From assembly GCA_001687465.1 (NCBI GenBank), contig LVLI01000173.1:124001-168102 (forward strand): a stretch of DNA of 44,102 nucleotides, written 5' to 3'. The translations under genes were made by a program, and so were the position numbers. This document shows, in pieces, positions 62 through 36,701 of the stretch. Each line of letters starts with the position of its first letter. The first letter of the stretch is position 1. The notes beneath the pieces were generated by a model. The model saw only the letters and a list, made by a program, of their open reading frames with translations, was not told where the DNA came from and did not search any database. This DNA is from Halocafeteria seosinensis (taxonomy: Eukaryota).

Positions 62-3000
62 CTAGAAGTGCTGTCTCGAGCCCGCAGTTTTTCGCTTGGC
101 GCTCCTCTTTCGTCCGATGCGGCGAGCCGAATGCGAAGCCACAGGTCTTACGCTAGGGAGAGTTTGTGCAAATTCTTTCTTCTCCGATTTCGTTCGTTCC
201 AGGCGTCTACGTCGCGACTCGCTGTGGTACTTGGCCTCGTGGGACAAGCTAGCGCGTTTCTTGGCAAATTGTAGCTGCCGAGCGTGATCATTGGTTGCCA
301 TTGCGGAAAGAGGATTTGTAGTACCCCCATGAGAAAGGTTCGATTGCCCCTTGGCATTATCCACTTCCACTTCAACAAGTGGAGCCGGTTCTGCGAGAAG
401 TTTGGATTTCCACACTCGGAAATTGAGCAAGGTTTTACTCGAAGCTTTAAGCTCAGACGTATCGACATCAGTTGCCTTAGCTACTTGCGTAGGCTTATTT
501 TTCACCGAAGGGGGTTCATTGGTCGAGAGACGAGGCTGCTTTACTGACACGACGCGCACACTTTGTAGTTGAATGGGGGTTCGTTTCCCTACATCAACAA
601 ATTGCGCAGAACCTGCCCTTAGGAGCTGCTTGTCGCCACCCGAGTGCAGCGCTAACGGATTTCGAGTGGGGGTCGGATCTCTCTTCAGTTCCTTTCCGCT
701 CGAGCTATGTCCCGTCACCGTCGTATACAAAAACTCGCTTTCTGATATGCCTAGATTTTGAGCGTAAATTTGCAGCGGATCATCATACCGCTGCATACGC
801 TTCTTATTGCGCTTCCGCTTATATGCTAACAGGAAGACGGCCAGTATACAAAGAGTCAGAGCCACAATTCCAGGAATGATTGCTCCCACAATATCATTCA
901 CGCCTAGGTTACTTCCTGCGACAGCTGCTGCTGGATCTTCATCGTCTGGATTAGTGGAGCTCACTGTTGGAGAGGCTTGCAACTGATCTAACGAGGCGGA
1001 GGGTGTCTTCTTTGTCGACAATGGCGTGTGCTCTCCAGTTGCCGGCGATGTCGGAATGCTTCTGGAAGATGACCAAGTAGAAGAGGCTGGCGAAGACACG
1101 GTTGGGCTCACTGTTAAGAACAGAGGGCGACGTCCAGAAGCTGAAGGGGTCGACGTAACAGATACTGTCGGAAATGCGGTGACGGAAGACGTTACGGTGG
1201 TGCTGACAGAGTTTGAAGCGGAAGAAGTCGGAGTGGGAGATACCGAAGGTTTCGTAAGACCGCCCCCTTGAAAACGTAATATTGGAAGGCCGTCTTTTTC
1301 TCCAATCTTCCAAATGTCAGCATCCCACATTTTGGAACCATTGTAGTAGTATAGCTGGTTCATGATCTTATTCAAATCTCCAGAGTTACCAATGCTTGAA
1401 ATGCTAGAAGCCCCGCTTCCCACCATGACTCTATCTGTGGATACTGAGTACTTCACTGACACAGAATCAGCTTGCGGTGACACACCACCTATTATCCCGC
1501 CAGTGTCACCGAGTTCGGACGACGCATTTCCACTAGAATAAGTCTTTTCGATTTTAAGTGAACCTTCCCGGTATGCAGCATTGGAACCGCATATCCCACC
1601 AGCTTCGTTTGCTAGAATGTTGCCCCTCGCGTACGAATTAGCAATATAGACCGAACCTTTATTTCTCGCTGTATGTTGCCCAGCAAGACCTCCACCTGCC
1701 GTACCTGTGATATCTCCCATAGAGAAGCATTCAGAAACCCGCGTTTCTCCCTTTAAGAAAGCCGCACCGAAACCTAGAATCCCACCGCTTCCGTGACCAC
1801 CAATATCTCCCAAGGAATAGGAACGATGGACCTCGCATTTTCCGTCTTCTCCGCCACATCCTCCACCAATGAGGCCTCCAGAGCCATGTCCATCAATGCT
1901 TCCACTGGAACAGCAGCCGGTCACGTTTACAACTCCCCCAACTCGTCCTGCGAATACGCCGACGATTCCACCAGCAGTCTCTAATATTCTGCCAGTCGAA
2001 GAGCACTCAGAGATCATAACATGACCCCCTTCAAAACCACACTTTGCCCCACAGATTCCTCCTCCACCTTGACTATCAAGAAATATACCCGTCACGAGCC
2101 CTGTAGAACTGCAATGGTGAATTTGAGCAAAGCGTTGCTGTGGTTGGAGAATAAACCCGCCTTGAGGACTCGTTTCCCCGCCCTTCATGTGAACGCCGAC
2201 TACAACAGGGGAATGTCCAAGTGAAGAAATGCTCTTATTTCCACCTACAATGAATCCGCCGAAATTGGTGACTCCATCAAGGCGAATTTCGTAGTTGTTC
2301 CCGTCCAGCGTTTCTCCAGACATCAAGGACAGGAATGTTCGATTATCGTAGTAGTCCAACCAGGTAAAACTGCACCTCTGTTTGAACGTGGCAAGCGATT
2401 CCACAAACTCAAAACAGTCCTCTTTACCCTCGAGGATGGATAGTCGGAGATCATGGAATCTCAAGATGGGGGCATTCGTTATAGAGTGGACAAACCACGT
2501 ATCCTCTGACCACCTGACCTTATGGTTATATGTGTACAGTCTTCCAAGAATCTCGTCCAGATTTCCCGAGTTTCCAATACTGCTGGTAAGACGGTCTCCA
2601 TTTTGTCCAACTATTGCAGGTGGTGGTGGTGCGTCCACAGAGGACCCCACGGACACAGGCTGAACCGGCGAGGGGTTTCCACTAGGCCCAGCAAACACTG
2701 AATACGAAATGCTCACCCACTTAGGATTGGAGCCTATACTGGCAATGATTCCGCCCGCCCCCGCGGCAAAACTGATATCTCCACTTGCATACGTGCTTAC
2801 TATGGATATGTTCCCGCCTGAAGAAGCGGTCATTGCACCCGTTATTCCACCTCCTCTTCCTTTGACGTCTCCAACTGAGTAACAGTTTCTTAGAGACACT
2901 GTGCCTCCCCTACCTGCCGTCTGCATGCCTGTAATGCAACCAGCGCCATCAGAGACAACGTCTCCCTCCGAGTAAGATTCAACAATGGAGATTATTCCCC

Positions 3001-5240
3001 CATCTGGAGCAGTAGCACCAGCGGCAATGCCGCCTGCACCTTGTCCTTGCACGGTCCCTAGAGAATAGCACTTGTCAATATAAACGCTTCCACCTTTCAT
3101 TCCTGCTTCCGCAGCAAGAATACCTCCAGCAAATTGGCCTATAATTGTACCCGTCGATGAGCACCTAAATATCTCGGCGGAACCACCGTTAATTCCGAGT
3201 CTGCCTCCAACTATCCCACCTGCACCTGTCCCTGGGATATCTCCAGTTGTTCTTGATCGCGATATTTTAACGTTTCCCCGGTTCGCTGCACAAGCGAAAC
3301 CACATAATCCGCCACCACGGGCACCTCCATCGCCGCCTTGCAGTACTCCTTGAACGATTCCCGTAGAAGTGCAGAAATCGATCTTGAAAAACTTCTGCAT
3401 CGAGGTTACGATGAAGCCGCCACTTGCACTGGTTGTACCACCCCGCGTGTGAACGTTTACGATTAATGGCGCTTCATGGATGTCGCTGATTGAGTCCTCT
3501 TCAGCAACTACGAAGAGACCAGAAAACCCTCGGATACCACTCAAGTCTACAGTGTAGCCGTTACCGTTAAAGGTCTCGTTGGGTCTCAAGCTTATAAACG
3601 TACTACCCAATCTCCACGAGAGGTTGCATATTTGGCTGAAGGTCTTTTTGTCGTGACTATACTTGGTACATGCACTGTCTCCCTCCATGATGGTTAGGCG
3701 ACGGTCCTGAAATCTCAGAACAGGTGGATCATCCGAAGACCAAACAACCCACGTATTGTTGGACCACTTTTGCTCACCATTGTGCTGGTATAGCTGTCCT
3801 TTTATATCAGTAAGATTGTTGGAATTTCCTTCTAGTTCATCGATATTTTCCACTCCCTCGCCTACGATTCCATCTATCACCGGAGCCAGCGAGCGTACTC
3901 TTGTCGAGTCTTCAGAGCTCTCCTCATCTTCCAGAGCGAGTCTTCGCTGTAACATGGGGCGCCGACTTAGGGCAAGAGGTGGAGAATATACGGAGTATCG
4001 GATACTGACCCGGCTGTTCGAGTAGACCTGGCCGATGATGCCTCCCGCATCAGAATGCACTTCCCCACTCACATATGCATTAGTAACTGACACATTGGTC
4101 TTCCTTGGGTCTCCGTATGAGTTGTCAGTCCCAGCCACCCCCGCTATGCCTCCTGCTCCTTTTCCCTTTACTTGACCGGAGGAGTAGCAATTGAGTATGG
4201 AAATGGTGCCAGCTCCCGTTCCTGTTACTGATATTGCTCCTGCGATACCACCAGCATCTCTTCCTAGTATATCCCCCTTGTTGAACGAGCTGGTGATGGA
4301 GACGCTTCCACCATGTCTCCCTGGAGCAGCACCAGCAATGCCCCCAGCGCTCTGTTCTAGAATTGCCCCTAGAGCAGAGCATTGATGGACGGACACATGC
4401 CCGTTTTTCATACCACCTTCTCCCGCGAGTATACCACCAGCGTATGCCGCTTCAATAGTTCCCGCTGAAACGCAGCCACTTATTTCTGCTGTACCTCCTT
4501 CCAAGCCCAAGCGACCACCAGCAATTCCTCCGGCCCCAGGTCCTTTGATGACGCCATTGAAAGTCGTTCGGAATATCTGCACTTCTCCTCCATTCAACGC
4601 ACACATAAATCCGCATATCCCACCGCCACGTTTGCCGCTGTTATTTTGGATACTACCTTGGACGGTGCCTGACGCACTGCATGAGTCGACTTTAAAGAAC
4701 TTCTGCTCAGCCTGAACAATGAACCCACCTCTTGTGCTTGTTTCCCCGCCAGAAGTATGAACGTTATGAATGAAGGGAGACGAAGTAAAGTTGCTAACTC
4801 CTTCAACAATGAAGAGTCCTTGGAATCCAGAAATACCGGAAAGGTCAATGTTGTAATTGTTGCCGTCAAAGGTCTCATAAGCTTGCAATGTGATGAAATC
4901 TCCAAGCCTAACCCACGTTATGTCGCATAGTTGGTCAAACCGCTCCCAAACAGTGTTATAATGGATACATTCCACTTCTCCAAGAATTATAGAGCCCCTT
5001 AAATTACGTCTGGGAGGGGGACTACTGCTGGGAGAAACTGTGGGAGTTGGAGAAGGTGTAGGAGTTCTTGTAGGAACTGATACGTTCCCCATGCAAAATT
5101 CGGGACCGCTGTACTCCAAATAGTACTCCCGTTCCACAGTCTCAAATATAGGCTGATAGTCGGCTCCGCTTGGACACAGCTCTCTCTGGTTTCCCGGGTT
5201 ATTGTGTAATTCCCTGGACGAGAATGTAGACGGTGTCCAA

Positions 5241-5282
<42 letters not shown>

Positions 5283-8200
5283 ATGTATGGCACCGACTTA
5301 CACTTCAAAAAGATGATCAGGGGAAACTCCCACAAATACATTTTCCGGGAGAATTCGTAGCAAGTTGCTTGAGAGGATGCTGAAGCAAATGAAGAATATG
5401 CACGGACGGAACCGTTTCGATCAAATAAATTTGAGTACACATACATTCCATCAACGCGTTTAATTCCCTTAAATGCGTTTTCATCAATTACCCTTAACTG
5501 GTTTCCTTCCAAATCTCTGGTAGCTCAGATTCAAGGGTAAAACATTCGCTCGCAGCTGCGCTATGCTAAATCCCAACGTACATTAGCTCCATGGTCTCAG
5601 CATCGTCGAACAAGCCACCCGGTAGATGAACCAAATGATTCCGACTCAGGTCTCTGTAGCGGAACCAGGTATTAGTAGCGGTAGCGGGTCTCTGTGTGCA
5701 CTAAACGGCTTACATAAATTGAACGGATTCCAATCCTGCAAACGCGGCTACTGAAAGTGTCTGCAAACTATTGCCGTTAAGTCGTCTGCCAAGCGGTGGC
5801 ACCGGAAGAAGCATGTATTCAGTCAAAACAAAATTCCTGAATTGGAAGGAACTGCTTACATATCTCTGAGGCTTTCCGTATGTCTGAATCGACCACCGGG
5901 TAGATGCATCAAAGCATTGTGTGATAAATCCCTGAGACAGTCAGCAGTTTCCTAAGTTTTCCGAGCTTTTATCATGCAGATCAGGGTAGACTCACAGGTC
6001 ATGCAAGTTAGTCAGCCCCAAGAATGCATCTTCGGGCACATCGACAATTTCGCATTGTGACAATTCCCTGGAACACAGGTGTATAGTGAAGTACACTCTA
6101 CCACTTTTTTAATGCACTTCTAGACTCACAATCTCGATAACGAGTGCAAATGAACAAATGCTGCCCCGGGAAGCGATTCCAAATGATTTTGGCGGAGCTC
6201 TCTGAGGGTTCATGGCATAAAATGGCAGGCTTTCCTCCTTGTCAGGAATTGCGGAACTTGGAAGTCACTTACAGTGTATGGAGCCGGTTCAAACCAATGA
6301 ATGAGTCATTTGTGAACGTCTCCAGTGAATTTACCGAGAGATCGCTGTAGCAGAAGATTAAGTACATTGCTGGCTGCAATTTTTTCTTGCAACGAACACT
6401 TACAGATGATTCAGCGACCCCAATGAGTTGAAAACATTACTCTTCAGCATGGTGATGAGATTCCCCCTAAGGTGTCTGCAGCAAAAATATATTTTTGGAT
6501 CCACAAGGCAAATCCGAAAAGTTGCGATTCTACGCCTTACAGCCTACGTAACGATGCCAATCCTGCAAAAGTGTCCTTGTTGAGCTCTTCCAAGTTATTA
6601 TTTTCCAAGGATCTGCAAACAGCGACAGCATCGTCAGCATCGTCAGCAAGGCTCATGTGGCGTTCTACCAAGAGAGTCATTGTGGTTGCTACGTACAAAG
6701 TTCTAAGCAAGTGCAGGCCCTTAAATGTTTTCCCTTTCAGTTCTTGCAACTTGTTCCCATCCAAGGATCTGCTTTGACAAACAAAAGCGTGTTAACTTAT
6801 ACCCGTCTCAAGCCTCTGAAATTCACATACAGAGTGGTCAAGGAGTCCAGGGTTTCAAACAGCCCAGGTCCCACGGAGCTTAACTCGTTTCGCTCGACAT
6901 GGCTGCAGCCGGTAGTGCTATGAGCTTCATTCCACGAAGTCTAAAAGTACACCTGAATGACTTACAGATCTGTCAGAGATGACATGCAGTCAAATACTCC
7001 AGGCTTTAGAGTACTTATTTTGTTTCCACTTAGACGCCTGTTCCGCAGCAACAACGCATCAACAGAGTCATGAGGTTTGGTAGAGTAGTTCATGAGATAT
7101 TCCCATACAGGTTTGTTAGCGATTCCATACAGCCGAACACGGCAGGCTCCAAGGCGCTGATTTTGTTTCTTTCAACATGCCTGCAGTAGTGGTACAAAAT
7201 AGCATTCTTACATATTGTGGTTGCACCAGTCAAAGCTACGTACAAATTCCGCAGGGTTGAAAGATTTCTAAATATCCCCTCTTGTAAGCCTGTAAGAGGG
7301 TTGTTTTCCAACCGTCTGTGGAGAATAAGAAGGGCATTGAGTTCAGGAACTATGAGGCAACCATGAGTTTGGTGAACTTACAGGTACTCAAGACTTTGCA
7401 GGTATTCGAATATACCGTCTGGAAGTCTCGTTAGTGCAGTGTGCCTAATAGTTCTGGATAAGTAGCATAACGTTTTCTTTCTGCCAAACATGGCAACGGT
7501 CCCAGATACTGTAACAGTACTTACAGTCGCCGAAGGGATAATAGTCCCAAGAAAACGTCCGGGTCTAGTGTCTCCAGGCTGTTTGCTTGTAATTCCCTGT
7601 AGTAATAGGCAGTATACTTCTTGTAGCTGCTGGACTCCACACTAACTCCAGCTGAACTTTTTATTGCCTTACACCTTGTGCAAATTTGTCATGTCTCTGA
7701 AAAGCCCTCTTGGTAGACTTTTCAAGCGATTCCCCGAAAAAGTCCTGTAAAAACAGGGTAATCTAACATGCATGAACTCTTCCATTGCTGTGTACACTTA
7801 CAGTGATGATACTTGATGCTGCTTCAAGAAGGCATCAGGATGAACTCGCTCAAAATTCCCTGAGTAAACATTCCTGCGTGAGTCCAATGAGTTGTAACGC
7901 ACGGCTTCTTTAATGTATGTATGACGTGTAAATCACGTACACATTATTTTCGCAATTGAAACAAAACAGCAGCGTCGTTTTGCCCTCCTTTTCATCGCAA
8001 ATGCAGGTGCACGCATGAACCCCACAATTCGTTTCCGCAAGCGTTCCTATGCAAAACTGGTCGACGTCTGCTGCTGTCTCGTCCAACTTGTCGAAGGTAG
8101 TTTCTGGTGGGCAATATGCTGAGCTCTCCCCAGGATTGTTTATAAGTACTCTGCCCATGCGTTAGAGTAACTCTATTCGCACTCTAGACAGTATCTGTAC

Positions 8201-9914
8201 TTGATTCACTTACACGCTCTCCAGCTTTTCAAGGCCAGAGGTGAAATTGTGTGGAATGAAGAACAGCTTATTATGCTTCAGGCTCCTGGAAGAGGTTCAA
8301 CATCTCCCCGAGGAATATATCGAAATGGCATATCTATAGAGCACCAACAATACGTACAACCAGCGTAACTCATCGAGACCATCAAAGGAATCCTTGAAAA
8401 TCCTCCCGACATTACTGGAACTCAGGTCTCTGCACCAAGATGGTCCATGTATAAAGCTATGTCTCCGCTACACATGACCTGTCGACTTGATCGCTTACAA
8501 TTGCTTTAAATTCTTCAACGGAGTGAAAGAGGTCTTATGAATCGTCTTCAAATTATTTTCGGTCAAGTTCCTGCACGGCAAAGGTATTGAGTGGAATTGA
8601 ACGAGAATTTAGCAAGGCACAACACATCTTGTACCATACAGTGCTTCCAGAGAGGCCAGGGGCTGCAAGACATCCGCGTCCAGAGGCGTCGACATTGCAT
8701 TTGCTCCAAGGTCCCTGGAACAAATCCATTTCGATTACACAGAATCTAAAGTATTTTCGCTCTTCATAAAAGCTCACAGAAACCGCAGCGCAGCCAAGTT
8801 TTGAAAACTATTAGCAGACAGATGCTGAAGATGGTTTTCTCTGTAAATTCTGCGCCAGCGAGAGTCATTCCCCATACCGGCCACGCACAACAAGCATATA
8901 CGTAATGAAGGGGAGCTTACAAAGTCTTCAAATGTGTCAGTCCCTCAAACCAGTCGCTTTGTATACCTCTCAAGTCATTGTTGCTCAACTCACTGTGTGT
9001 ACAAGTTCAGGTACCAGCATAAGTTACTGCTTTCCCCGTGGTGTGGACACTTACAGCTTCTGAAGATTGGGAAAGTTAGTAAGCACACCATCAAGGTTAT
9101 GAAACTTGTTCCTCGAGAGATCTCTGGGACATTTTAAGAGTTAATTGCGACCGGTAATACCATAGAAGGTTATAAAGTTCTGTATCGAGGTGCTCGTACA
9201 GTTTTTCCAGGTCTTGTATACCATCAAATGTTTCATGATCAAGATCCCATGCTTCAAGGTTGTTGCCGGAAAGGTCTCTGAAACCCAGAATAGCATCAAG
9301 GAGAATATCTTACCATTCCCAAGAACTTAACGCCCACTTACAGTTTCTTTAACTGAGTCAACTCTTTGAATGGGCTTCCTGCTAGTGAGGATAGGTCATT
9401 GTCAGCCAAATTCCTGCATTGGACCCTTCATGACGGAACCAAAGGCTGATGACTGAGGAGAAAGGCCTTCCTTACAAGTCCACAGTATCTTTAACTTCAG
9501 AGAATGCGCCACGTTCGATACGCAAGATGCCTTGTCCACTCAAATCGCTGCACCCAGAAAAATATGGCAGACATATTGTCACCCCACGCCTCCGGATCAA
9601 ACTTACATTGTCCCAGAACATCCAGTACACTTCTTCAAGGTAACATCCTCTCTTTCTTCTGAGTTGCATGTACATGTACAATTCGCGCCTGATTTCTCCA
9701 CACATGAACTTCCGGATTGCAAGTGCCGTCTGACAGACCTCCGGAGATAGTTATGCTGGCCATTATCACCACCATTCGCCCCGACGCGCCCAACGGCGCA
9801 CGCAAGTATCCCTAGCAAACAAAATGCCTTTACGTGCGCCTTTGGAAATTTTGCCACCGCTGCTGAAGTGCAGCTGCTGGATAGACAGCTTCCTCTCTTG
9901 CGAGGACGAGTCAT
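62..9914 (-). CDS. 32-exon LRR + GLUG-like-module type-I membrane receptor/adhesin (~2589 aa): hydrophobic leader, Cys cap, 10 LRR, Cys cap/cap, 19 LRR, Cys cap, P/S/T linker, 3 GLUG-like modules, S/T stalk, TM, ~250-aa tail
   Basis: Hand-spliced exons: 9607-9914, 9476-9547, 9342-9413, 9200-9277, 9055-9123, 8921-8992, 8778-8849, 8640-8714, 8499-8570, 8358-8429, 8214-8285, 7941-8150, 7802-7873, 7673-7744, 7525-7596, 7382-7453, 7244-7315, 7109-7180, 6966-7037, 6831-6902, 6697-6768, 6541-6612, 6404-6475, 6273-6344, 6130-6201, 5996-6067, 5860-5931, 5714-5785, 5582-5653, 5445-5516, 5302-5379, 62-5213. All 31 introns are GT(AAG/ACG/ATG/GAG)...CAG, 57-88 nt, phase 2. The total of 7770 nt is open in frame. 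Exons translate as LRRs (e.g. DLSRNHLVHLPGGLFDDAETMELI). The TM segment IVGAIIPGIVALTLCILAVFLLAY is followed by KRKRNKKR. Confidence 0.9.
5244..5278. repeat. (GA)17 microsatellite in the last intron (5214-5301) of the LRR gene
   Basis: Perfect GA run read directly. It produces the artefactual LSLSLS in the ORF track. Confidence 0.95.
5302..7873 (-). repeat. LRR block 2: 19 single-repeat exons (18x72 nt, 1x78 nt)
   Basis: For example 6130-6201 ELRQNHLESLPGAAFVHLHSLSRL and 5302-5379 ILSSNLLRILPENVFVGVSPDHLFEV. Exon+intron period is ~130-165 nt. Confidence 0.92.
8214..9547 (-). repeat. LRR block 1: 10 single-repeat exons (7x72, 78, 69, 75 nt)
   Basis: Each exon encodes xLxxNxLxxLxxxxFxxLxxLxxL, e.g. 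8921-8992 ELSNNDLRGIQSDWFEGLTHLKTL. Canonical splice sites flank every exon. Confidence 0.9.
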
Positions 9915-11269
9915 TCTCGTAGTGCAAGAGAGTAGATAGAGCCTTCTCCCTTTCGACTTTGAACACGAACCAATGGCTCGTATGATAATACGTGGTTCTG
10001 CATGGAGAAAAGGGGTATTTCAAATGACTGCCACATGCGGACTTATGCCTTGGTTGGTCTTGCGACCTCGTCTAGTGTTCGACAAGGACCTGGAGGACGG
10101 CTCTCAATGCCTTTTTATCATTTTCCATACCCTCAAAATGGCCTCATTCAGAGACAGCAGTGTAGGGAGCATTTAGGTTTCCTTTGCCTAAAAACACAAG
10201 CGTGATAGTATCACATACCGCTTAATGAATAGCTCTCTGGATTTTGGACTCTGCCGCTATAATTGATTAGGTACTCTCCCCGAATTCGCTACACACACGC
10301 TACGAAATCAAAGAATGGATACTGCTATCAGTATACCAGGCTTGGAGACTTTCGCCACAGAATCCTGGAAGTATTTGTCGTACTTGCTACGCGATTGGTA
10401 CCACAGTAAAGCGGGCAACCAAATCCACCAGTTTGTTCTTCACTGCTGACAAGGGAGCGGACACAGAGCAAGGGAGCGACGAGACCGCTTCAACCCTTTC
10501 TGCAGTCAAGGCCAATAAAATCCCAGAATAAATTACAGCAGCGGTTCGGGATCGACTATGCTACTGCGGATCCTCTCATAAGTTTAGAATTGGTTGAGCG
10601 CTCTAACAATAATAGAGCGCAGGATGACCACTGCAACTTGTACTTGAAGCAAAAACCTGGAATTTGCGAAGCATTTCCCGACAGCGTCCATTGGGCCTTT
10701 GGAGAGAACATAGTGAGAGTTTGAGCTGAAGAGAAGAAGAAGAGGAGTTGGAAGGTTATATGGACAGCAGATTGCATTGACGGCGATATGTCCCGTCGTG
10801 ATTGCTCTCGTAATCTAAGATAGCGGAAGTTGGGCGGGAGATGAGCTCCTGAGCCAAGGGGATCCATAGCGGCAACAAAAGAAGAATCTCCATCCTGTGC
10901 TAATAAAATCCCTACAGGAGCTATCGAGTGGCCACGAAGACGAGTGTAATCGTCGTTTGTTCGCGCCCTTGGTCGATTGAAAACGAAGGCATTACCAGTA
11001 CAAGTTGTCCTTAGTTGTACTTCAAACACTTGTGAAACCCCAATGTTACCAAACAACAGTTGTTTTTGTTAACACCTGCAAACAGAAGTTACGCTTTTCC
11101 AGCCTCGTCGAGCGTTGCTACTACCGATGCCTTATCCCAGATATCGGTCTTACACATGTTTCTTTATTTATACCGCCGAGCGATTTTAATAGCTATACAG
11201 CCAAGCTTCAATAATACCGGGGCAGTAAACTAGGCGTCTTCCGGTAGGGGCACTACTAATATACACAAC

Positions 11270-11530
11270 TTTAGTACAATGTACAATATAATAACAGTCT
11301 CAAACTGCTGGTTACCTGTTCCGTTGGATAGGCACGATAATCCGAAGAGGGAATGGTCACGGTCCTAATGCACGTTTCGGATTCAATCAGGCCGAGACAC
11401 GAGAACCGACTGGTATCCCGGAGGCTAAAGGCTGTTTGCGCATTCCCTGAGCATGTACTGGATGGCATACCCTCCTCATCTCCATAATAACCTGCAGGAC
11501 AAATCTGGCGTATTCCGTTTTGACAGTGGT
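11270..11530 (-). pseudogene. Decayed fragment of a Cys-rich repeat protein (GCC2/GCC3 / ephrin-receptor-like type), copy 1
   Basis: Minus strand reads HCQNGIRQICPAGYYGDEEGMPSSTCSG and then frameshifts. It is a direct repeat of ~12150-12405 (shared cataccctcctcatctccataata, tggcgtattccgttttgacagt, tacaatgtaca). Confidence 0.6.
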
Positions 11531-12149: not shown

Positions 12150-12436
12150 AACTTCTACAATGTACACTAGAATAACAGCAGCCCATATGTGCTCATGCTG
12201 GCGCTAAATAGGGACAGTAAACCTGAGAGAAGAATATTCGCCATGTATATGCACGCTTCATCCAGGCGGAGAAGACTACCGGCTGGTAGATCTTGGAGGG
12301 CACAGGCTGTTTGCACATTATTCCCGAACATGTACGGACATCATACCCTCCTCATCTCCATAATAGCCTGCAGGAAAACCTGGCGTATTCCGTTTTGACA
12401 GTAGTATCCCCTTGGACACTTGCGTTGCTCGGTACG
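12150..12436 (-). pseudogene. Decayed fragment of a Cys-rich repeat protein, copy 2
   Basis: With ~3 frameshifts repaired it reads RTEQRKCPRGYYCQNGIRQV[C]PAGYYGDEEGMMS.TCSGICANSLCPPRSTSR, followed by a stop. Confidence 0.6.
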
Positions 12437-12756: not shown

Positions 12757-15700
12757 TTATTCCCTGCCACGAATTGAGCGCTCAAGGAACTGCAGGATTT
12801 GCTCTTGTTTGTCCTTTTCAACCTGCGTGACAAAAGCATAGTGCTCAATACATGTGCATGATGCAATCAGGATATGCAATCTTCCTACGTACACGGATTC
12901 GGTATCCTCCATCACGAAAATTGCTTCCCAGCAAGGAAATAGAGCCATCATCGTTACAGCTGGCTGATTCTACTTGATCCAGTGGTATGGAGCCTTTCTT
13001 TTGCTTACCCTTATAGTATGTGAGCTCTCGAGACGTAATTTTATAGTTGCGGCGAGCAACAGGGGTGCGGCGCATTTTCTTCTTCCCCTCCTTATCCATG
13101 ATTCCCTCAATGACACCCGGAATCTCGAGTGACAGAGCTCCACTCTTGGCTGTATCTCCCGTCTGACGCGAATCAGACGGATCTGTTGCACTCTTTTCCG
13201 CTGTCTCAACTGTACTGTTCCTATCGCCTAAGGTGTGAGAGCTGGAGACAGTCGTACCTTCTACTGTGTCCGCGACAGTTCCAGTAACGCTCGTGGACTG
13301 TTCACCACCCTGGCCCTCGTTCGTAGTTACTTGTGCATCACTCTCCGTGCTCTTAGATTTCCCTCCCGTTTGGGATGAATCTGTCGCGCCTATTGCACTT
13401 TTATCCATCGTCGTAGTGGTGACATTGCTCTCGGCAGGTATCTGCGAAGTGGAGCCCATCGTGCTCTCAGCCGGAGTGGATGCACTTCCAGTGGACGGCG
13501 AGGCATACGCTGCCTCAGAGCCACTTCCTGTTATGTCCGTCTCCACAGTGCCCTGCGCGGGAGCAGCGCATGCAGACACAGGTGGTCGTCTCGGGATGCG
13601 TACGGGAGTGCTGCTCAACACCATTACACTCTCTGAAAGCGTGGAGCTACTCTGCGATTCTGTTTTGTCATTTGCTTCTCTGGGCTCTCGCTCCTCGGCG
13701 CTGTCCTGCGATGCAACATCGCTGTCACCAAGGACCGAAGAGTTGTCGTCTGCTTCTACATTGCTTTCAGTTTGGTTCGCCTGCTCAGTTTCCTGAGGCT
13801 TGTCCAAATTTGAAGATTTAGGACTTCCTTCTTCATTTTCTGCATCTGCTTGCTCGCTGTCTTCCTCGTCGGATTGCAACCTTTCGACCGGCTTCTTCAA
13901 ATGCTCAGGGATATTCTTCCTATGCCACACAGCAATTGAAGGGTCATATTCGAATTCATCGAAAAAGCCCTGATCACGCAGAGCTTCTATCAGCTCGTCT
14001 TGTTCCGATGACGTCAGGAATGGTTCCTTTGTAAGAGTATCCATTGTTACCTTGGGGTCGATATCCTTACGGCGCATCGCCTTATACACGCCATACAGGC
14101 CCTTTAGTGTACCACCGGCATCTCCGGTTGCAATTGCTTTACCAACGGCAATTGCCGAACCTACAACCCGGAGCCATTTCGTCCAATGCTTTGTCTCTAA
14201 TACGAAGTCCGGTTGCGTCCCGTATGCGCACTGGAAGTAAAGTATCAATCTCTTTCGAATCCTTCCTTTGGCTTCAACGGACGATGGTGTAGGAAGCTTC
14301 TTTTTCACAAGGGCAAGGTGCGACTTGATTTCTTTCTTCTTTTGTTGTAACTCTGATTCCATCCGCGTGATCGCTTTATCCGTCTCTTCGAGTCTCGAAT
14401 CGACGCGCTGCTCTTCCTCTTTTGCCGCTACTTCTAGGACGTTCACTTTTTGCTTTACGTCGCCAACGGAATCCGTAAGAAGGTAATGCTCATCCTCAAG
14501 CTTCTTTCCCTTTTCTTCCAAATGGTCAGCACGCCGAGCCAATTGCTCTACGTATGTGGACATTTCCTGTAAGGGGACGGCTTTTCCTTCCACCTTTTCA
14601 TCAACAAGTCGGAGTACTCGACCATAGATGTCTTCTTGAGAGGTCAGCAACACGTCGGAGAGATATGATTCCTCACTTCGGTAAAAGTCCAGAATTTGTT
14701 TCGCAATAGTGGACGCTTCAGTTTCGTGGTGGTTGCACAGATCCTCCAATTTAGACTCATATGACTGGAGAGTCTCTTTGTAAACACCAGCGACGTTTCT
14801 CACCTCCTTTAGCAGCTGCACTGCGGCTTCAGGATCAACGTCATCAATTATCCAACCCATCAAAGTTTGCATGGCTTTCTCCGCTGAGGCAGGCTCCGTT
14901 CGGCCCACCAGGCCAATGATCGTGAGGCCGGAACCTTCAGCGATTCCGATATCCTCGGTAGCGGTGATGATTTTCTCCAAATGAGGCCGCACAATCAAGA
15001 CATTTCTTGCTGCGATATCGGCAAATGCCCGAAGAATATAAGAACCATGCATGTTGTGGTCCAATAGTGAAACCAATTCATCCACAAATCCGTAGAGCAG
15101 ACGCGGGCACCGTTTGGCGACTTGCTGAATAACCTTGGATCCTTCAACGTTCGCCATACCCGCGTCTTGAACAGTGTTCTCGACTACTGCATCAATGTGA
15201 TCGTGCACAATTCGTCGATTTCGTGCATAGCCTAAGTTGATGACTTGAAATATGGGTGCAGTAGCACCCTGCGAACCATCTGGGTTCTCCTCCAGGGCCA
15301 TTACCATATGCGGCACGTACTTGGATGCTTCCCTCGATCCGGCACTTTGGAAGTGCTGATATATAGAGCTACAAACAACAGCAGATACTGGCATCATAGT
15401 ATCAGGGCTTTTTGGAACAGTGAGCAACGCGATCAAAGCCGGTAGTACTTGTTCCCAGAAGCCTTTATCGGATGACTGGTATAACTGCATCTGGAAAGCG
15501 CGACAAAGCACACTCAGCGCAGCTTCCAAATCGGGACTGTACGTCCCCATGTTCTTCAATAAATGCGCCCACCATTTCATAAGTCTGAGGATTTTGTCCA
15601 AATGCGGGCTCGCCTCATCCCAGCTTACATTCTGTAAAGGCCCAAAGAAGTAGTCTAGCCCAGAAGTATGATAGAAACGGATATCCACTGCCAAGAATTG

Positions 15701-17974
15701 ATCTAAAAAAATAGGGAGTGCTTTGACAAACTGAGATTGATCTTGCATACATAGATTCCAAGACTGAAAGGCTATCTGCTGTGCTTCATTTTTCGAAGAG
15801 CTGCTCAAGTACCTCTCGGCTGCATCCTGAACCGCGGAACCCCCACCAGATACTACAGGAACTTGAGGTTGTGCTCGGTCCAAGGTCTGCATGTGCGACA
15901 TCATGTGCATATTCATCTCTGGTACCGTGTGAGCAGTTTGCCCACGCTGAGCGCCGCCGATGCCAGTGGATGGCTCAGAAGCCTTGTCGATGCGCTTCTC
16001 AAGAGATTTTGGGAGAACCTTCCTATGCCATGAGGAGTTAGAACTTTCATAGTCGAATTCATAGTAGTAACCGTGCTCTCGTAGCAAATCAACCATTTCT
16101 TTCTGTTCAGCTGAATTTAGAAAGGGAACTCTCACAAGGGTTTCGAACGTTACTTTGGGATCATCATATCTGTGACGAATTGCCTTGTAGACCTCGAACA
16201 AACTCTCCAGTGATCCGTCCTTCCCCGCGCAGTTGATATTATTTCCTGTTGCAAGCATTCCGCCAACTAACCGGATCCACTTGGCCCAGTGCTTTGTTTC
16301 ACATGCAAATTCTGGTTCAGTAGCGCGGGAGCAGGGGAATCGAAGCACCAGTCTCCTCTTGATGTCGCCTCTCACCTCTACCGCTGATGGAGTAGGGATG
16401 GAGGAGTTGAGCTCGGCGAAGTAGGACCTAAGCTCCTCCTGCTGCTCCTTTAATTCCACCAGCAAACGCGAGACAGTTTCAGCCTTGTTATTGGTCTCCG
16501 AACTGGCTGTATCTTGACCATCCTGTTCCTTTATCGCGAATTCCACTACATTCGCCGTCTGAGTTACATCTCCTACAGAGTCACTAGGAATTTGGTGAGT
16601 CTCTGCACAGTCCTTCGCCCTTTCTCCTATGTGATCTGCTTTTCGAGTAATCTTTTCGACAGTAGTGGCCGACACCTCCTCAGATGAGACTGTTTCGTCT
16701 CCACTGTCGACCAGCCTAAGTGGACGACCGTAGACATCTTCTTGGTTTGACAACAAGCATTCGGGGTCATACTCCTCTGTGCTATTGTAAAACTGTAGTA
16801 TGCCGGCTGCAAGATCGGATACTTTCTTCTTCGGATGGTTACAGAGTTCTTCAAGAGTCTTTTTCTCCTTCTTCAAAGAATCCTTGTACACGCGCCCAAT
16901 CTTGTTGACCTGTTCCAGGATAGCCTCTGTGATAAAGTCAGTACTCTTGACCCATCTTTCAAGAGCTTGTATTGTCTTCTCCGCTGTCTCCAGATCGGAT
17001 CTTCCCAAGATACCAATGAGATATAGTCCGCGCTCCATAACGCCGTACTTATCCAGTGCCGCGACAATGCGGTTTGCATGAGGGCGTACCACAACGGCAC
17101 TACGTTTTGCTACAGCGGCCAGCGATTCCACGAGGTACCCACAAATCCATGGTCCGGACAAATCGTGTTTAGCAGACTCATTGTTTGTTTCCTGCGTTGT
17201 GATATGGTCCAATAGCGACGAGATTTCATCTACGAATCCAAAGAGTTGTCGCGGAGAGCTCTTCGCAACATGCTGGATGAATTTGCAGCCCTCGATGCTA
17301 CCGTCTCCATGCACAGCTCTATCAACTACAGCGTCCATGTGATCATGAATATGGTCACTGCTTGTTTCATAGGCTGCGTCAAGGATACGAAATACCGATT
17401 GCAGCAGTGCTGGTTCCTGTACTCCGTCCTCCAAAAGCTGGAACGCAACGCCCAAGTGTTCAGCAGCATCTCGGGACAATGCTTTCATCAAGGTTTCTGA
17501 TATCACGCCCTTGATTCGGCTCAGCTTCCATTTGTCTATGACTGCCAGCGGAGCCATCCTCGCAAAGAGAGGAAGCAGCTCATCCTTTTTTGCGTTGGAG
17601 ATCTGGGCTAACAGCTCATTCAGAATTGCATCAAGTGCGGTTAACAGATTGTCATCTGGATTCTCCATGCTTTTAAGCACGTGGGTCCACCATTCCATAA
17701 CCTCGACAAGTTTGTCCACATTTTCCTTAAGTTCATTTCGGCCGCTGAAGAACTCTTTTTCGTTGGACTTTTGGAGGATAAGACTTAAAATACTTCCAAG
17801 TTGATCAGTTTGATGGTATCGAGGATCTGCGGAAAGAAACCTGTCCAGTATGAGTGGAAGCTCATCACCGTCATCGTCATCATTGGCTGTTTCAATCGCC
17901 ATCATCACTTCCTGAGCCTGCATCGGGGACGCATCGTCCAAGTAGTGATCGAAAATTTCTACGAGCCCGGACAT
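12757..17974 (-). CDS. Melted/VEPH1-like protein (~1715 aa): two tandem copies of [ARM/HEAT-like solenoid, coiled coil, conserved middle domain], S/T/E-rich linker, C-terminal PH domain
   Basis: Exon 1 is 12893-17974, then a 70-nt phase-0 intron 12823-12892 (GTACGT...CGCAG), then exon 2 12757-12822 encoding the PH terminal helix VEKDKQEQILQFLERSIRGRE*. PH-like segment: VIEGIMDKEG...ELTYYKGKQKKGSIPLDQVES. Motifs IIGLVGRTEPASAEKAMQTL, KKLPTPS...ILYFQC and FLTSSEQDELIEALRDQGFFDEFEYDPSIAVW resemble VEPH1/Melted as recalled. CDS certainty is high, family call moderate. Confidence 0.75.
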
Positions 17975-18824
17975 TTCAAAAGCGGTGGATCGAACTTCGA
18001 AGCTGGATATTCGATCTTGCTGTCAACGAAGGATATTCAGAATTCCAGGTTTGATGACGCCTCGACCGCAGGGTCAAATTCGGTGGTGAAACTTATCACA
18101 CCCTCTAAAATTTTAGTGATTCTTTGTAAGTGGCGTTTATGGCACCCAATGGAGCTGCTGGTTCTGAGTTGGAACCGAAGAACGTCCCTCTGGAGAAATC
18201 CAGCAGTATCTCTGACTCACAAGGATTCTACAAGAGTTGCATACGAAAGGATGTTGTCTTCTCCGGTAGAATTGTGCTATAGCTACCAGAACACACGCAA
18301 TCAAACCGTTCTGATGGAGTTCATAGGCTAGTAGAATCATAGCCCGGAAAGAATGGACCTCGCGATGCGATCATCAGGGCCTTTGTTGCGATCCCCGCCC
18401 AGTTGCTCAACCGAAATCTAGGATATCCGTCGCTTGGGTCCAGGGGAAAGAAATTTCGAAGTGTATCAAGCAATGCAGGGTGAGAAAACAGTGTATGCGG
18501 TTCGGCTATTCAATCAGTGTGTAGTGAAGAGCTTATGGGACAATTGAGGAATCATTCATACCAGTTCGCACCACCAACGACCCCAAACACTTCCTCTCAG
18601 GAGCCATATGCCACAACATGCAATGTGGTGTACATGCCATTTCAAAACTGCTCATTTCAGTGTTGGCAGCTTCTCGGTAATCATTCATCATTGCTCCCTT
18701 GCTAGTGGTGAAAAAGGAGTTCCAGGAGCTCGAGGTGGAACTTCAGGAGTTACTCAGCTGGGCAACCGAGGTACCGCTTAAGTCCTCCGGGTCAACCAAA
18801 TTCCCTGAGCAAATCATTGGTGCA

Positions 18825-20619
18825 TTAGGCTCTGTCTTTTGTTGCAGGAGGCGCTTCAGTCAACTTCTTGGACCCCGTTTCGTTTAGCAACAGCACTGAA
18901 GCAGAGGCTACGAGTGCCAGAATACCCATTACCGCGAGTACAGCTTTGCTCCCAGGGAAAATGTCAATCAGTGGAGGAGCGCCAACGCTGGCAACTCGGG
19001 AGCTAAACGTGCACAGCCCCAGCGCGGTTGCACGGGTGACTGTGGGAACGATTTCAGTGGTGAAAACGTAGAGTAAAATGAAACTGCCTGTGATTGCGAA
19101 CTTTCCAAATAAAGCAAAGGCAGTAGTAGCTTTTCCTCCCGGAATCGAAATTGATAAAATAAGTGCGATGCCAGCAGTCCCCACAAATCCGCAAACGGAT
19201 TTCCTCCGCCCAAATTTGTCGACCAGAAATCCGGCCAAGAAAAGAGCTGGAAGTTCCAAAGCACCAGCGAGAGCAGCATTGGTATACTTGGATCCACTGC
19301 ATCTCTCGAGTAAGTCGACAGAACAACATCTAGTTCAGGATATTAACTTCAAACGCTTAACCAAAGACTTACCTGAGGTTTGAGGCGTTCAAAGTTAAAC
19401 CGTAATATAACAGACTATTAACGAACCAGGAGTAGCAAAGAACCACTGTATGGATAGCCAATGACGCGCTTGAGCAGCACAACGTGTACATCGGACTGAT
19501 TCCACTCTTTCCTTCTGTCTCTTCATCGCGGTGTAGCAATTCCTGAGAATCATCACTAATTTCAGTCTCACCTCGAGCCTTTCGGGTCACTGGTTTCTCA
19601 TCGTCTTCGATGGCAAAGTCATCGTAGCGGGATTTCTTCTTGCTTCCTTCTCTCAGCAAAGCAACTCCTTCGTTCAAGTGCTTTCCGTTTAAACGTGACA
19701 ACATATGAAGCCATTTTTCCGATTCATTATATCGGCCGCGTAAATGTAGCCAACGAGCCGACTCTGGAACCCACAGCAGACTTAGTGCGAGAACCATAGT
19801 GGGAAGTGAAATCCACAACTGATACCATTTCCACTCTTCATTACGTGACGCGTATGCTATGGCTGCAATCTGATCAGGTGACTTAGCAGAAACGTGGTAA
19901 TGATAAGCACCATCCAGCAGTCATGAAACTCGAAGCACTTCACGTACCAATGCAGCAGCGATACTCCAGGCAACATTCAGCACAATTCCAGCTCGAGCTC
20001 TCCAGTTGCTTGGCATGTACTCAACCATCAGGCAGTAACTTACAGTTCCCATTCCAGCACTAGTAAACCCAGTCAAGAAACGTAACACTATAAGTTCCGG
20101 GTAGTTGCGAACCAGTGTCATTCCAATGGAGCTAGCCGTAGCTGCCCAGGTGGTCCATAGCAAAGATTTCCGTCTTCCAATACAGTCAGCCAATGAACTG
20201 ATGCAATAAGTACCTACTGCAGCGCCTCCAAAGAGTGCGCTCCCGGCCAAGGCACTTTGATTCTTGTTGAGTTCCAAATCGTCCCGGATCCATTCGGAGG
20301 TGAACGTCAGCGACAGCCATAGACAACTGACAGCGAACCATGCCAAAGAGGTCAGTGCGACGACGAGTGCTTGGAATCTGCCAAACGCCCCGTTACCCTC
20401 GATCCATTCGTCGATGCTACAGAAATGGTCAGTATCATCGCCTTCTGCGTCTTCTGTCGGGTTGATGTGGACGTTGATGGCAGCTTCACACGCTTCTTCT
20501 GAGTCCTCGGAGACTCTCGCTCGTTGCTTTTCAGCGGGAAGGGGTTTGTGCTTCTTGCGATGGTTAGAAAGGGTCTTGCCCTTGGAAGGGCCAACCTCTT
20601 TCGTCTCTCGTTGGCTCAT
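18825..20619 (-). CDS. MFS transporter, SLC22/organic cation transporter-like (546 aa, 3 exons)
   Basis: Exons 19948-20619, 19373-19869 and 18825-19296. Introns are 78 nt (GTACGT...CAG, phase 0) and 76 nt (GTAAG...CAG, phase 2). Motifs GxFGRFQ, LADCIGRRK, VPESARWL, YYGLTLNASNLSGSKYTN, VDKFGRRK, TEIVPTVTRATALG. Confidence 0.93.
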
Positions 20620-21220
20620 TGTGGATGGAATAACGGGATTCCCGAGTGGGCCGAGAGTGGGATAGAAAGCTACCAGTATACAACGTTCTGCCTCTTCTTA
20701 CGACATTCTCCTGTGGGAAACTATCACTTAATATTTCCTTATTCAGTTAAGCCTACAAGCAAAGAATATACTATCCATCAACACGAAGAAATCTTACACT
20801 TCTTGTGTTGAGTCAACCACGGGCTAGAATTGAACTCGTCTCCATAGGAATTGAATTTTGGGATTTACCCCTCAGTTTTTGCAGGATCATCGCTTCACAA
20901 CACTGGACATTTTTTGGACCAGGAGAAGTAAAAGTAACAAATATTATTAAGGTGCGTCCAGAAGCGACTCCTGTACAAATTGTACAGTACAATGTACATT
21001 ACTGGCGCGCGGGCAGCGGAAGCGGGATGTTGAAGTCACGTATGCATACACAAGCCCTGCTACCTAACTCAGGATCGTTGCATTGGCACTCGGAGTGAAT
21101 GTATGTCTTTGTGTACTTCGCTTGGAAACAAGAATCGAAAAAAAGCAGCAGATAGACAAGTCGTTGCGTGCCGGTTGGCATCATCCATCTCTTTTGTAGT
21201 TTTTTCTCCAGGGTGGTACA

Positions 21221-21232: not shown

Positions 21233-21462
21233 CAAGCGAAAAGGCATTTTTACAAGTCAACATTAGCCAACCAGACTCTTTTTGTCGACGGAGGAACCTA
21301 CAGGGTAAAGTGTCTAGGAGCTAAAACACGGAATCCTCGTGCAGAAAAAGTGCTGCTGGTCACGTACAACGTGCTACATGGCATGATGACCGCATTTCGC
21401 CTTAATTTACACTGTGAAAGCAGCACTGGTGCCAACAATGTACTGTAGAGAAAACCACAAGC

Positions 21463-36010: not shown

Positions 36011-36701
36011 TTCGATACACACAACGTTATGCACTCTATTCCAAAAAGTCTCCGTTCGTGTAACCAATAAACTATCCTATGGCAAAAATATAGCCTATAT
36101 ACTGTAGCCCAGGGACTTCATGTACGCCACGAATGAAAAAAGTTGTTGAAGGTCGCATGCCTGCTTGCGATCAAGACCGTGTGAAACATGGAGACGCGAG
36201 ATATCTTCTTAAAGAAAAAGGATGCAAAGGAAAACAGGTTTCTTCAGCTATGTCTACCAGTAGGTAAAACATGAGACATGCAAGGAGAAGGCCGGCCCAA
36301 GGGAGAAAGGAAGTTTTAACGGCTCGCAAAGTGGAGCCGTTAAGCGGCTCGGCAAACCACAACAACAGCACCAGCATGCTGCCATAGATGGCAACCAACC
36401 ACCACTACTGGAAGTTCGGTTTTGTGTTCTAGATATTCTGATCATACGCTCAAAACTTCGCGCGACCAAGATACGGGCACTCTTGGGTACCGACAGCGCG
36501 GCGGAGAGGGAGTCACACGGGCAAAAGGCTCACCAGAAGCATATACAGTATAGGTACAATAACCACGGTACAAAGCACAAGATCGTACAAGGCAGGTGCG
36601 TGCGTACGTCATCGCTGGTTTGCCACTCTAAAGAATTTCAGCAAAAAAAAGATGCTTCAACCGATTCCCCAACGGTAGGTCACGAACGACTCACCAACAC
36701 C

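Follow-up and report, generated by a model that had tools for sequence, protein, structure and literature searches.

The array of leucine-rich repeat (LRR) exons described here is probably the outer end of a predicted single-pass surface protein of 2589 aa in Halocafeteria seosinensis. Its 29 repeats likely stem from old duplications of one exon-intron unit, are likely spliced in a fixed order, and likely bind prey, substrate or other cells. The array belongs to a real, spliced protist gene. Splicing is likely to be mostly constitutive, and the product is likely an adhesion or prey-binding protein. The window, which is the whole stretch of DNA analysed, is 44,102 nt long (contig LVLI01000173.1, positions 124,001-168,102 of the forward strand), and all coordinates are positions within it.

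The gene lies on the minus strand and has 32 exons and 31 introns. When the exons are joined, the frame stays open for 2589 codons. The first Met of this frame is at 9914; intron 1 has no spliced contig, so the 5' end is a predicted one. The domain order is a signal peptide, two capped LRR solenoids, three intronless GLUG-like beta-helix modules, a stalk, one transmembrane (TM) helix, and a basic, Ser/Thr-rich cytoplasmic tail of about 250 aa (Table 1). No identical database protein was found among 7989 candidates scored. An artefact of chance frames or a pseudogene is ruled out by the open 2589-codon frame, the spliced contigs, and a pN below pS.

Table 1. Features of the gene, with positions in the window
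Feature	Position	Strand	Basis or remark
Exon 1: start codon, predicted signal peptide, Cys-rich LRRNT-like cap	9607..9914	-	hydrophobic aa 28-46
LRR solenoid 1, 10 one-repeat exons	8214..9547	-	exon model
Solenoid 1, exons 1-5	9547-9476, 9413-9342, 9277-9200, 9123-9055, 8992-8921	-	
Solenoid 1, exons 6-10	8849-8778, 8714-8640, 8570-8499, 8429-8358, 8285-8214	-	
210-nt hinge exon, Cys-rich, non-LRR	7941..8150	-	LRRCT-like half (NNPG..C..C), then LRRNT-like half (CxCxC..C..C)
LRR solenoid 2, 19 one-repeat exons (18 of 72 nt, final 78 nt)	5302..7873	-	exon model
Last exon, 5152 nt, intronless: LRRCT-like cap, linker, three beta-helix modules, stalk, TM helix, cytoplasmic tail, stop	62..5213	-	
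GLUG-like beta-helix module 1, 432 aa	3707..5002	-	alignment A1, structure model
GLUG-like beta-helix module 2	2453..3703	-	47% identical to module 1
GLUG-like beta-helix module 3	1268..2449	-	38% identical to module 1
Ser/Thr-rich stalk	881..1267	-	43% S+T
Predicted single TM helix, aa 2318-2336, then basic residues	824..880	-	hydropathy 2.81
Conserved cytoplasmic motif RxWKxxxLAEPxP	380..418	-	invariant columns of alignment A3

Each of the 29 LRR exons between 9547 and 5302 holds one repeat and has a length divisible by three. There are 25 exons of 72 nt, two of 78 nt (9277-9200 and 5379-5302), one of 75 nt (8714-8640) and one of 69 nt (9123-9055); a first-pass annotation had given these lengths, and they return unchanged in the 32-exon model. 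The nominal chance of such a series is (1/3)^29, or about 1e-14, a figure that is partly circular because the exon borders were picked to maintain the frame. That annotation also held that intron phase and position are uniform, as every intron bears out. All 31 are in phase 2 and of the form GT..CAG (the CAG end in 31/31), measure 57-88 nt (mean 67), and cut the codon of the first Leu, Ile or Val of LxLxxN. Any of the 496 forward donor-acceptor pairings yields L, V, I, F or M at the junction (496/496). Therefore, skipping would preserve both the frame and the core residue. The array had been placed at 5302..9547. Its LRR exons are all there, but the hinge exon, which divides them into 10 + 19 repeats, had been overlooked.

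The repeat is of the typical class, a 24-aa unit with the column profile LxxLxLxxNxLxxLxxxxFxxLxx, accompanied by Cys caps and a predicted signal peptide. Pfam LRR_8 matches 18 of the 29 LRR exons at E<=1, and the structure assigned to the region rests on repeat profiles. Exposed positions vary among the repeats (entropy 2.7-3.5 bits), as in any LRR. Metagenomes contain the same 72-nt one-LRR unit at 119 loci, of which 39 have at least three such exons; the beta-helix module is absent from all 119.

The caps presumably correspond to LRRNT and LRRCT, as judged by their Cys pattern; Pfam has no match to the hinge caps. The hinge exon resembles both the end of exon 1 (shuffle p=0.0035) and the start of the last exon (p=0.0005), compared with p=0.42 for a control pair. 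Among the repeats, similarity is in excess at a distance of two (p=0.0009, one of six distances tested). This periodicity and the duplicated caps make it likely that exon duplication enlarged the solenoids. In such a history, one 72-nt exon with phase-2 introns would have been amplified, partly as two-exon blocks, and the whole capped solenoid would then have been duplicated to give the 10 + 19 repeats. Via a phase-2 intron, the LRR block may have become attached to a member, itself without introns, of an expanded family of beta-helix receptors. In both solenoids the first repeat is atypical, with the lowest leave-one-out scores (9.7 and 5.9), and the end exons are therefore position-specific. 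The repeat order looks old and, instead of being freely recombined, is likely fixed.

The layout invites another explanation, combinatorial splicing, by which the cell would leave out varying sets of LRR exons and so obtain many binding variants. Such skipping is reported for the brown-algal ROCO genes (PMC11378527) and, for one exon, human NLRP3 (PMC6642158). Transcripts are represented by three runs (X2-X4), taken as RNA-like from GT-AG joints in their contigs. In these contigs, ten of the 31 introns are removed at the borders of the exon model, eight shown by joints and two by loose ends reading into the next exon, and all ten splices connect adjacent exons, with no skip. Two of these introns lie in solenoid 1 (9054-8993 and 8357-8286). 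The other eight lie in solenoid 2 and include the intron into the last exon, where a 29-nt loose end matches 5184-5212 in 28 of 29 letters. This tally comes from one sample at a depth of 2-8, in contigs that drop rare forms, and 21 of the 31 introns are never seen spliced, which leaves some room for variants. Against skipping also stand the shortness of the introns, their consensus sites, and the position-specific repeats next to the caps. Exons that are skipped are usually flanked by long introns, and skipping outside animals mostly shows no bias towards lengths divisible by three; Ectocarpus and Bigelowiella are exceptions, in which skipping is associated with short introns (PMC6142364). In this gene, where introns are short and their sites strong, recognition is likely to be across the intron, and splicing errors would therefore give retention, not skipping. 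All in all, combinatorial splicing is quite unlikely here. Unspliced introns do appear. Eight contigs, from all three RNA-like runs, carry unspliced introns (introns 4-10) within 8183-9071; all unspliced pieces shown fall there, and the solenoid 2 pieces shown are spliced. The splicing of solenoid 1 is therefore not cleanly constitutive. Two contigs each combine one spliced with one retained intron, and every one of introns 4-10 would introduce an in-frame stop if retained. Regulated retention in solenoid 1 might turn the gene off by decay, or yield a short secreted LRR protein lacking the membrane anchor, and would be compatible with a fixed exon order. However, contigs from a single sample may merge different molecules, and pre-mRNA, antisense RNA or DNA carry-over would look alike; one unspliced contig (depth 1472) runs on into unrelated sequence and looks chimeric. 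Such regulation is unlikely.

Alternatively, the gene may be one of many LRR paralogues that trade exon units by unequal crossing-over, like the Ectocarpus ROCO genes and the young Tetrahymena LRR genes. Its symmetric exons and the traces of earlier block duplication would suit ongoing shuffling. So would the adjacent beta-helix genes, which underwent a recent 6.2-kb duplication or conversion (95.9% identity); the locus therefore recombines. The exons themselves tell against it. Described from the start as diverse, they average 40% nt and 27% aa identity over 300 pairs, with a best of 64% and 58%, and none of these pairs is young and near-identical. The introns show no homology (the best pair scores 22, and shuffled introns reach a maximum of 22 on average), and nearly all are too short to hold an exon. 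A profile scan of both strands of the whole window finds no spare, silent or inverted LRR exon with splice sites, and no LRR exons lie upstream of the neighbouring beta-helix family members inside the window. A DNA run (X1), which may be the window's own source, reveals no more than two haplotypes, and its contigs run colinearly with the window over 5290-9950, without joints and with a two-allele bubble. Ahead of the last exon, these two haplotypes show 34 differences, 21 of them intronic, 8 synonymous and 5 non-synonymous (pN 0.0025, pS 0.0133, pN/pS 0.19; Fisher p=0.003). Both small deletions between the alleles are in introns, and one of the three amino-acid changes in LRR exons, a number too small for site tests, falls at an exposed LxLxxN position. 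This is purifying selection between the two haplotypes, and ongoing shuffling is rather improbable. The first-pass annotation had called the array a substrate for shuffling or splicing. The layout does permit in-frame skipping and duplication, but the contigs and the window show no sign of either process being active. The variable recognition system that it inferred from this finds no support: the ten junctions seen skip no exon, the DNA contigs are colinear, the pN/pS is low, and the window has no young exons, intron homology, or spare or inverted exons.

In the predicted model, beta-helix module 1 is a right-handed parallel beta-helix (pLDDT 86, pTM 0.86). It matches many right-handed beta-helix structures at Z 19-23 (VIA), for instance NosD (Z 23.1, rmsd 3.1, 292 aligned) and IgA1 protease (Z 22.5, rmsd 4.5, 277 aligned). 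The top Foldseek match is 3n6z (E=0.004), and a PDB sequence search with the module gives a single weak match (E=0.037). Atlas features on the module are Glug / Peptidase_M26_N, and many of its sequence relatives carry PF07581; Pfam Glug has no match at E<=0.01 in the four window proteins. The modules would thus be GLUG-like by features, relatives and fold, with a fold match that singles out neither family nor function. None of the 252 relatives fetched shows a fusion of LRRs to a beta-helix, and a motif resembling RxWKxxxLAEPxP occurs in 11 of these 252 proteins. Six pattern matches to module 2 in viral contigs and 69 to the tail alignment in JGI metagenome contigs gave no confirmed case, and the alignment of the modules varies too much to serve for locus searches. 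A bacterial or viral origin of the module is conceivable. The literature searched on GLUG with beta-helix, LRR or eukaryote contains no mention of "GLUG motif" or PF07581. Likewise, the main texts of PMC5447177 and the genome preprint mention no LRR, leucine-rich or GLUG, and their supplements may list these genes.

Given what the organism eats and the classes of fold present, one may guess that the ligand is a surface glycan or protein of prokaryotic prey. A bolder proposal is an undescribed, expanded repertoire of surface receptors for prokaryotic prey or viruses. Capped GLUG-like beta-helix modules would form its core, the heads and membrane ends would be interchangeable, and its members would share a cytoplasmic motif and have undergone recent conversion of the ectodomain; this member would add a 29-exon LRR head, varied by splicing. 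This proposal is a long shot.

The recognition and holding of prey by bacterivorous flagellates are poorly known. More useful as a lead is an expanded family of large surface proteins with beta-helices, which lack Pfam annotation and include one with an LRR head, since it offers candidates that can be tested in an organism that can be cultured. If combinatorial splicing were proven in a free-living flagellate, that would be a notable result. Genes with one repeat per exon have been described before in plants, animals, brown algae and ciliates. To this layout the gene adds one more lineage, likely the bicosoecid stramenopiles, and a clear case without accompanying signs of active diversification. 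The less familiar part would be the fusion of the repeats to a predicted beta-helix stalk.

Plant LRR receptor kinases (ERECTA, SERK, rice group 5) share one repeat per short exon, an extracellular LRR region and a single TM helix, the last two predicted here. In the rice kinases, phase-2 introns likewise fall at the first Leu of xxLxLxx, and intron-rich subgroups show little positive selection in the LRRs (PMC3050792). However, the plant repeats are of the GxIP class, whereas those described here are of the typical class (AFxxLxxL) in two capped solenoids on a beta-helix stalk; Pfam finds no kinase family in the last exon. A PDB profile search with the repeat returns 232 sequences at E<=0.001, and the best matches are animal typical-class proteins (LRRTM, IGFBP acid-labile subunit, LRRC15, LGR4/5, Slit, VLR). 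There is no sign of orthology with these, no Ig, EGF, TIR or 7TM partner, and no somatic cassette system as in the VLRs. Frame-preserving exons of 69-75 nt are a described peak of exon-modular LRR families, and NLR exon junctions fall at one position in the beta-strand (PMC6642158).

The brown-algal LRR-ROCO genes share the 72-nt one-repeat exons and likely the supergroup, the stramenopiles (PMC3341825, PMC11378527). Their exon consensus begins at GxxP, which places the cut elsewhere. They have a ROC-COR GTPase domain, to which the last exon has no Pfam match, and the present protein is predicted to be extracellular. The hallmarks of shuffling described for them are introns that contain silent and inverted exons, near-identical paralogues that have recombined, and positive selection (PMC3341825, PMC11378527); silent or inverted LRR exons of this type are absent from the short introns here. 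The 90-bp-exon LRR genes of Tetrahymena also have tandem equal exons, phase-2 introns and a junction residue, and the oldest of them have short introns of background length, as in this gene (PMC6564038). Their repeat is 30 aa long rather than 24, and the conserved young exon-intron units described there have no counterpart here. Finally, the GLUG (PF07581) / Peptidase_M26_N beta-helix proteins (IgA1 protease beta-helix, BACOVA_03286, PfbA adhesin) share Gly-rich GGxxG repeats and a predicted right-handed beta-helix with the modules, which differ in having their own Cys N-cap and W..W..P C-cap.

The gene with one leucine-rich repeat (LRR) per exon was modelled by a splice-site search, followed by manual closing of gaps. 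The resulting 32 exons give an uninterrupted translation of 2589 amino acids. The first-pass annotation had proposed 29 LRR exons (25 of 72 nt, two of 78, one of 75 and one of 69), and the model recovers them exactly. Its claim of uniform phase-2 introns at one repeat position is likewise borne out: all 31 introns are in phase 2, are 57-88 nt long, have the form GT..CAG and interrupt the codon for the first hydrophobic position in LxLxxN. Every forward donor-acceptor pairing (496/496) yields L, V, I, F or M. A Cys-rich exon without an LRR, the hinge exon, had been overlooked; it splits the array into 10 repeats (solenoid 1) and 19 (solenoid 2). The last intron, which is the longest, contains a (GA)17.5 microsatellite (window 5244-5278), and a 150-nt direct repeat (11382-11530 and 12257-12405, 80% identical) is found in intergenic DNA on the upstream side of the gene.

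Predicted genes and coding features of the window
Feature	Position	Strand	Remarks
LRR gene	ATG 9914, stop 62	minus	32 exons
Hinge exon	8150-7941	minus	210 nt, Cys-rich
1725-codon frame	12845-18022	minus	helical-repeat region, internally duplicated; weak Pfam Arm_3 match
MFS / sugar-transporter-family gene	18825-20697	minus	at least 3 coding pieces
Fourth module-family member	21418-23892	plus	one elongated module, S/T/P stalk; no TM helix detected
Tandem intronless module gene	26633-36076	minus	6 beta-helix modules
Tandem intronless module gene	36702-44102	minus	at least 5 beta-helix modules

At its N-terminus the protein has a predicted signal peptide and a Cys cap, both encoded by exon 1. Shuffle tests find the first half of the hinge exon similar to the beginning of the last exon (p=0.0005), and its second half similar to the final part of exon 1 (p=0.0035), but find no such similarity in a control pair (p=0.42). 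Because the hinge halves match the two cap regions, the protein likely has two solenoids, each with its own caps. The repeats are 24-mers of the typical class; Pfam LRR_8 matches 18 of the 29 at E<=1, and the repeat profile matches PDB chains of LRRTM, ALS, LRRC15, VLR and LGR.

In the intronless last exon (5152 nt), three Gly-rich modules, each some 400 residues long, are followed by an S/T stalk, a single TM helix and a tail of roughly 250 residues. Module 1 is predicted to be a right-handed beta-helix (pLDDT 86). The model compares with NosD, IgA1 protease, AlgE, PfbA, lyases and tailspikes at Z 19-23, and Foldseek returns no match for it at E<=0.001. An Atlas search of the module points to Glug / Peptidase_M26_N, although a Pfam scan matches neither. 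Given the signal peptide and TM helix, the protein is predicted to reside at the cell surface, and its fold classes by themselves would suggest a putative role in binding prey or substrate.

The model that probably accounts for this gene is an old LRR head of fixed order. In this model, a single exon-intron unit would have been duplicated to form the head, which would then have been joined onto an intronless beta-helix receptor. The exon order would be fixed and splicing would proceed intron by intron. The first-pass annotation had suggested a variable recognition system created by skipping or shuffling. That interpretation is supported in part: the layout would let exons be skipped or duplicated in frame, but no skipping joint was seen among the 10 introns found spliced, and no silent or inverted LRR exon in the window. 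Four sequencing runs contain the stretch, and their contigs were compared over window 5290-9950. In the DNA-like run, six colinear contigs cover this region end to end without joints. The other three, whose RNA nature is inferred from GT-AG joints, come from a single sample, with short contigs of depth mostly 2-8; they show eight joints at predicted introns and two loose ends continuing into the next exon. Among the low-depth contigs listed from this sample, 10 of the 31 introns are seen spliced, all neighbour to neighbour, and none of the 10 skips an exon. Since contigs lose rare forms, such joints reveal the main splice path only. A survey of 65 eukaryotes associates exon skipping with long flanking introns, Ectocarpus and Bigelowiella being exceptions, and in its available sections reports no 3n bias among skipped exons in most non-animals (PMC6142364). 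Combinatorial skipping of the LRR exons is quite improbable. Eight contigs (8183-9071) retain, whole or partly, at least one of introns 4-10, each of which contains an in-frame stop; regulated intron retention in solenoid 1 would be compatible with the fixed-order model, and is itself unlikely. Unspliced or partly spliced contigs are concentrated at 8183-9071 in all three RNA-like runs. One contig there, of depth 1472, runs on into unrelated sequence absent from the window.

Genomic shuffling that is still ongoing also has little probability. The 25 72-nt exons share on average 40% of nucleotides and 27% of amino acids (best pair 64% and 58%), and likeness among the introns is no higher than among shuffled sequences. 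Within solenoid 2, similarity between repeats at a distance of two exceeds expectation (p=0.0009; 6 distances were compared), which suggests that two-exon blocks may have been duplicated long ago. When both strands of the window were scanned with the repeat profile, no additional LRR exon that has splice sites appeared. The alleles show 34 differences in the LRR region (8 synonymous, 5 non-synonymous, 21 intronic; pN/pS 0.19, Fisher p=0.003). Three of the amino-acid changes fall in LRR exons, and one of these three affects an exposed position of the strand. In Ectocarpus, the case for shuffling was built on silent and inverted exons, on young paralogues that had recombined and on positive selection (PMC3341825, sections available). 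By contrast, silent and inverted LRR exons are absent from the window, and the overall pN/pS between the two haplotypes does not indicate positive selection. Window GC (43-52% per kb) and the two-allele bubble are in keeping with the 46.8% GC and diploidy given in the accessible part of the genome preprint (10.64898/2026.06.25.734631).

The window contains three further module-family genes. The ectodomains of the tandem pair are 95.9% identical over 6.2 kb (dN/dS 0.37), whereas stalk, TM and tail are divergent (55-70% identity); recent gene conversion or unequal crossing-over of the ectodomain is the likely cause of this pattern. The module profile finds 849 cluster representatives at E<=1e-30. 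Among 252 fetched relatives, both capped-module ends score in 94, a tail motif is common to 11, and four (P0008, P0021, P0024 and P0122) have at least five C-terminal hydrophobic helices. At least seven share their EukProt source with GECG01011988.1, a record 99.9% identical to the 1725-codon frame, whose prefix probably denotes the bicosoecid stramenopile Halocafeteria seosinensis. LRRs occur in 0 of the 252, and a Pfam scan of 55 also gives no LRR family. Short exons would escape metagenome gene callers; the fusion is therefore not necessarily unique, and others could be hidden among metagenome relatives. No description of the module family turned up in the main texts searched. What merits pursuit is this family, together with the joining of LRRs to a beta-helix.

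The LRR layout itself is also seen elsewhere. A pattern for the exact 72-nt exon unit occurs at no fewer than 119 metagenome loci, with plant-like as well as typical repeats; flanks were obtained for 80. Three or more such exons are present at 39 of the 119 loci listed. In the sections available of the respective papers, rice LRR kinases, ERECTA and SERK have the same intron phase and cut residue (PMC3050792), brown-algal ROCOs have 72-nt exons with splice variants (PMC11378527), human families have exon-modular LRRs (PMC6642158), and Tetrahymena has arrays of 90-nt phase-2 exons (PMC6564038). Genes with one LRR per exon are an already known kind, to which this gene adds a member.
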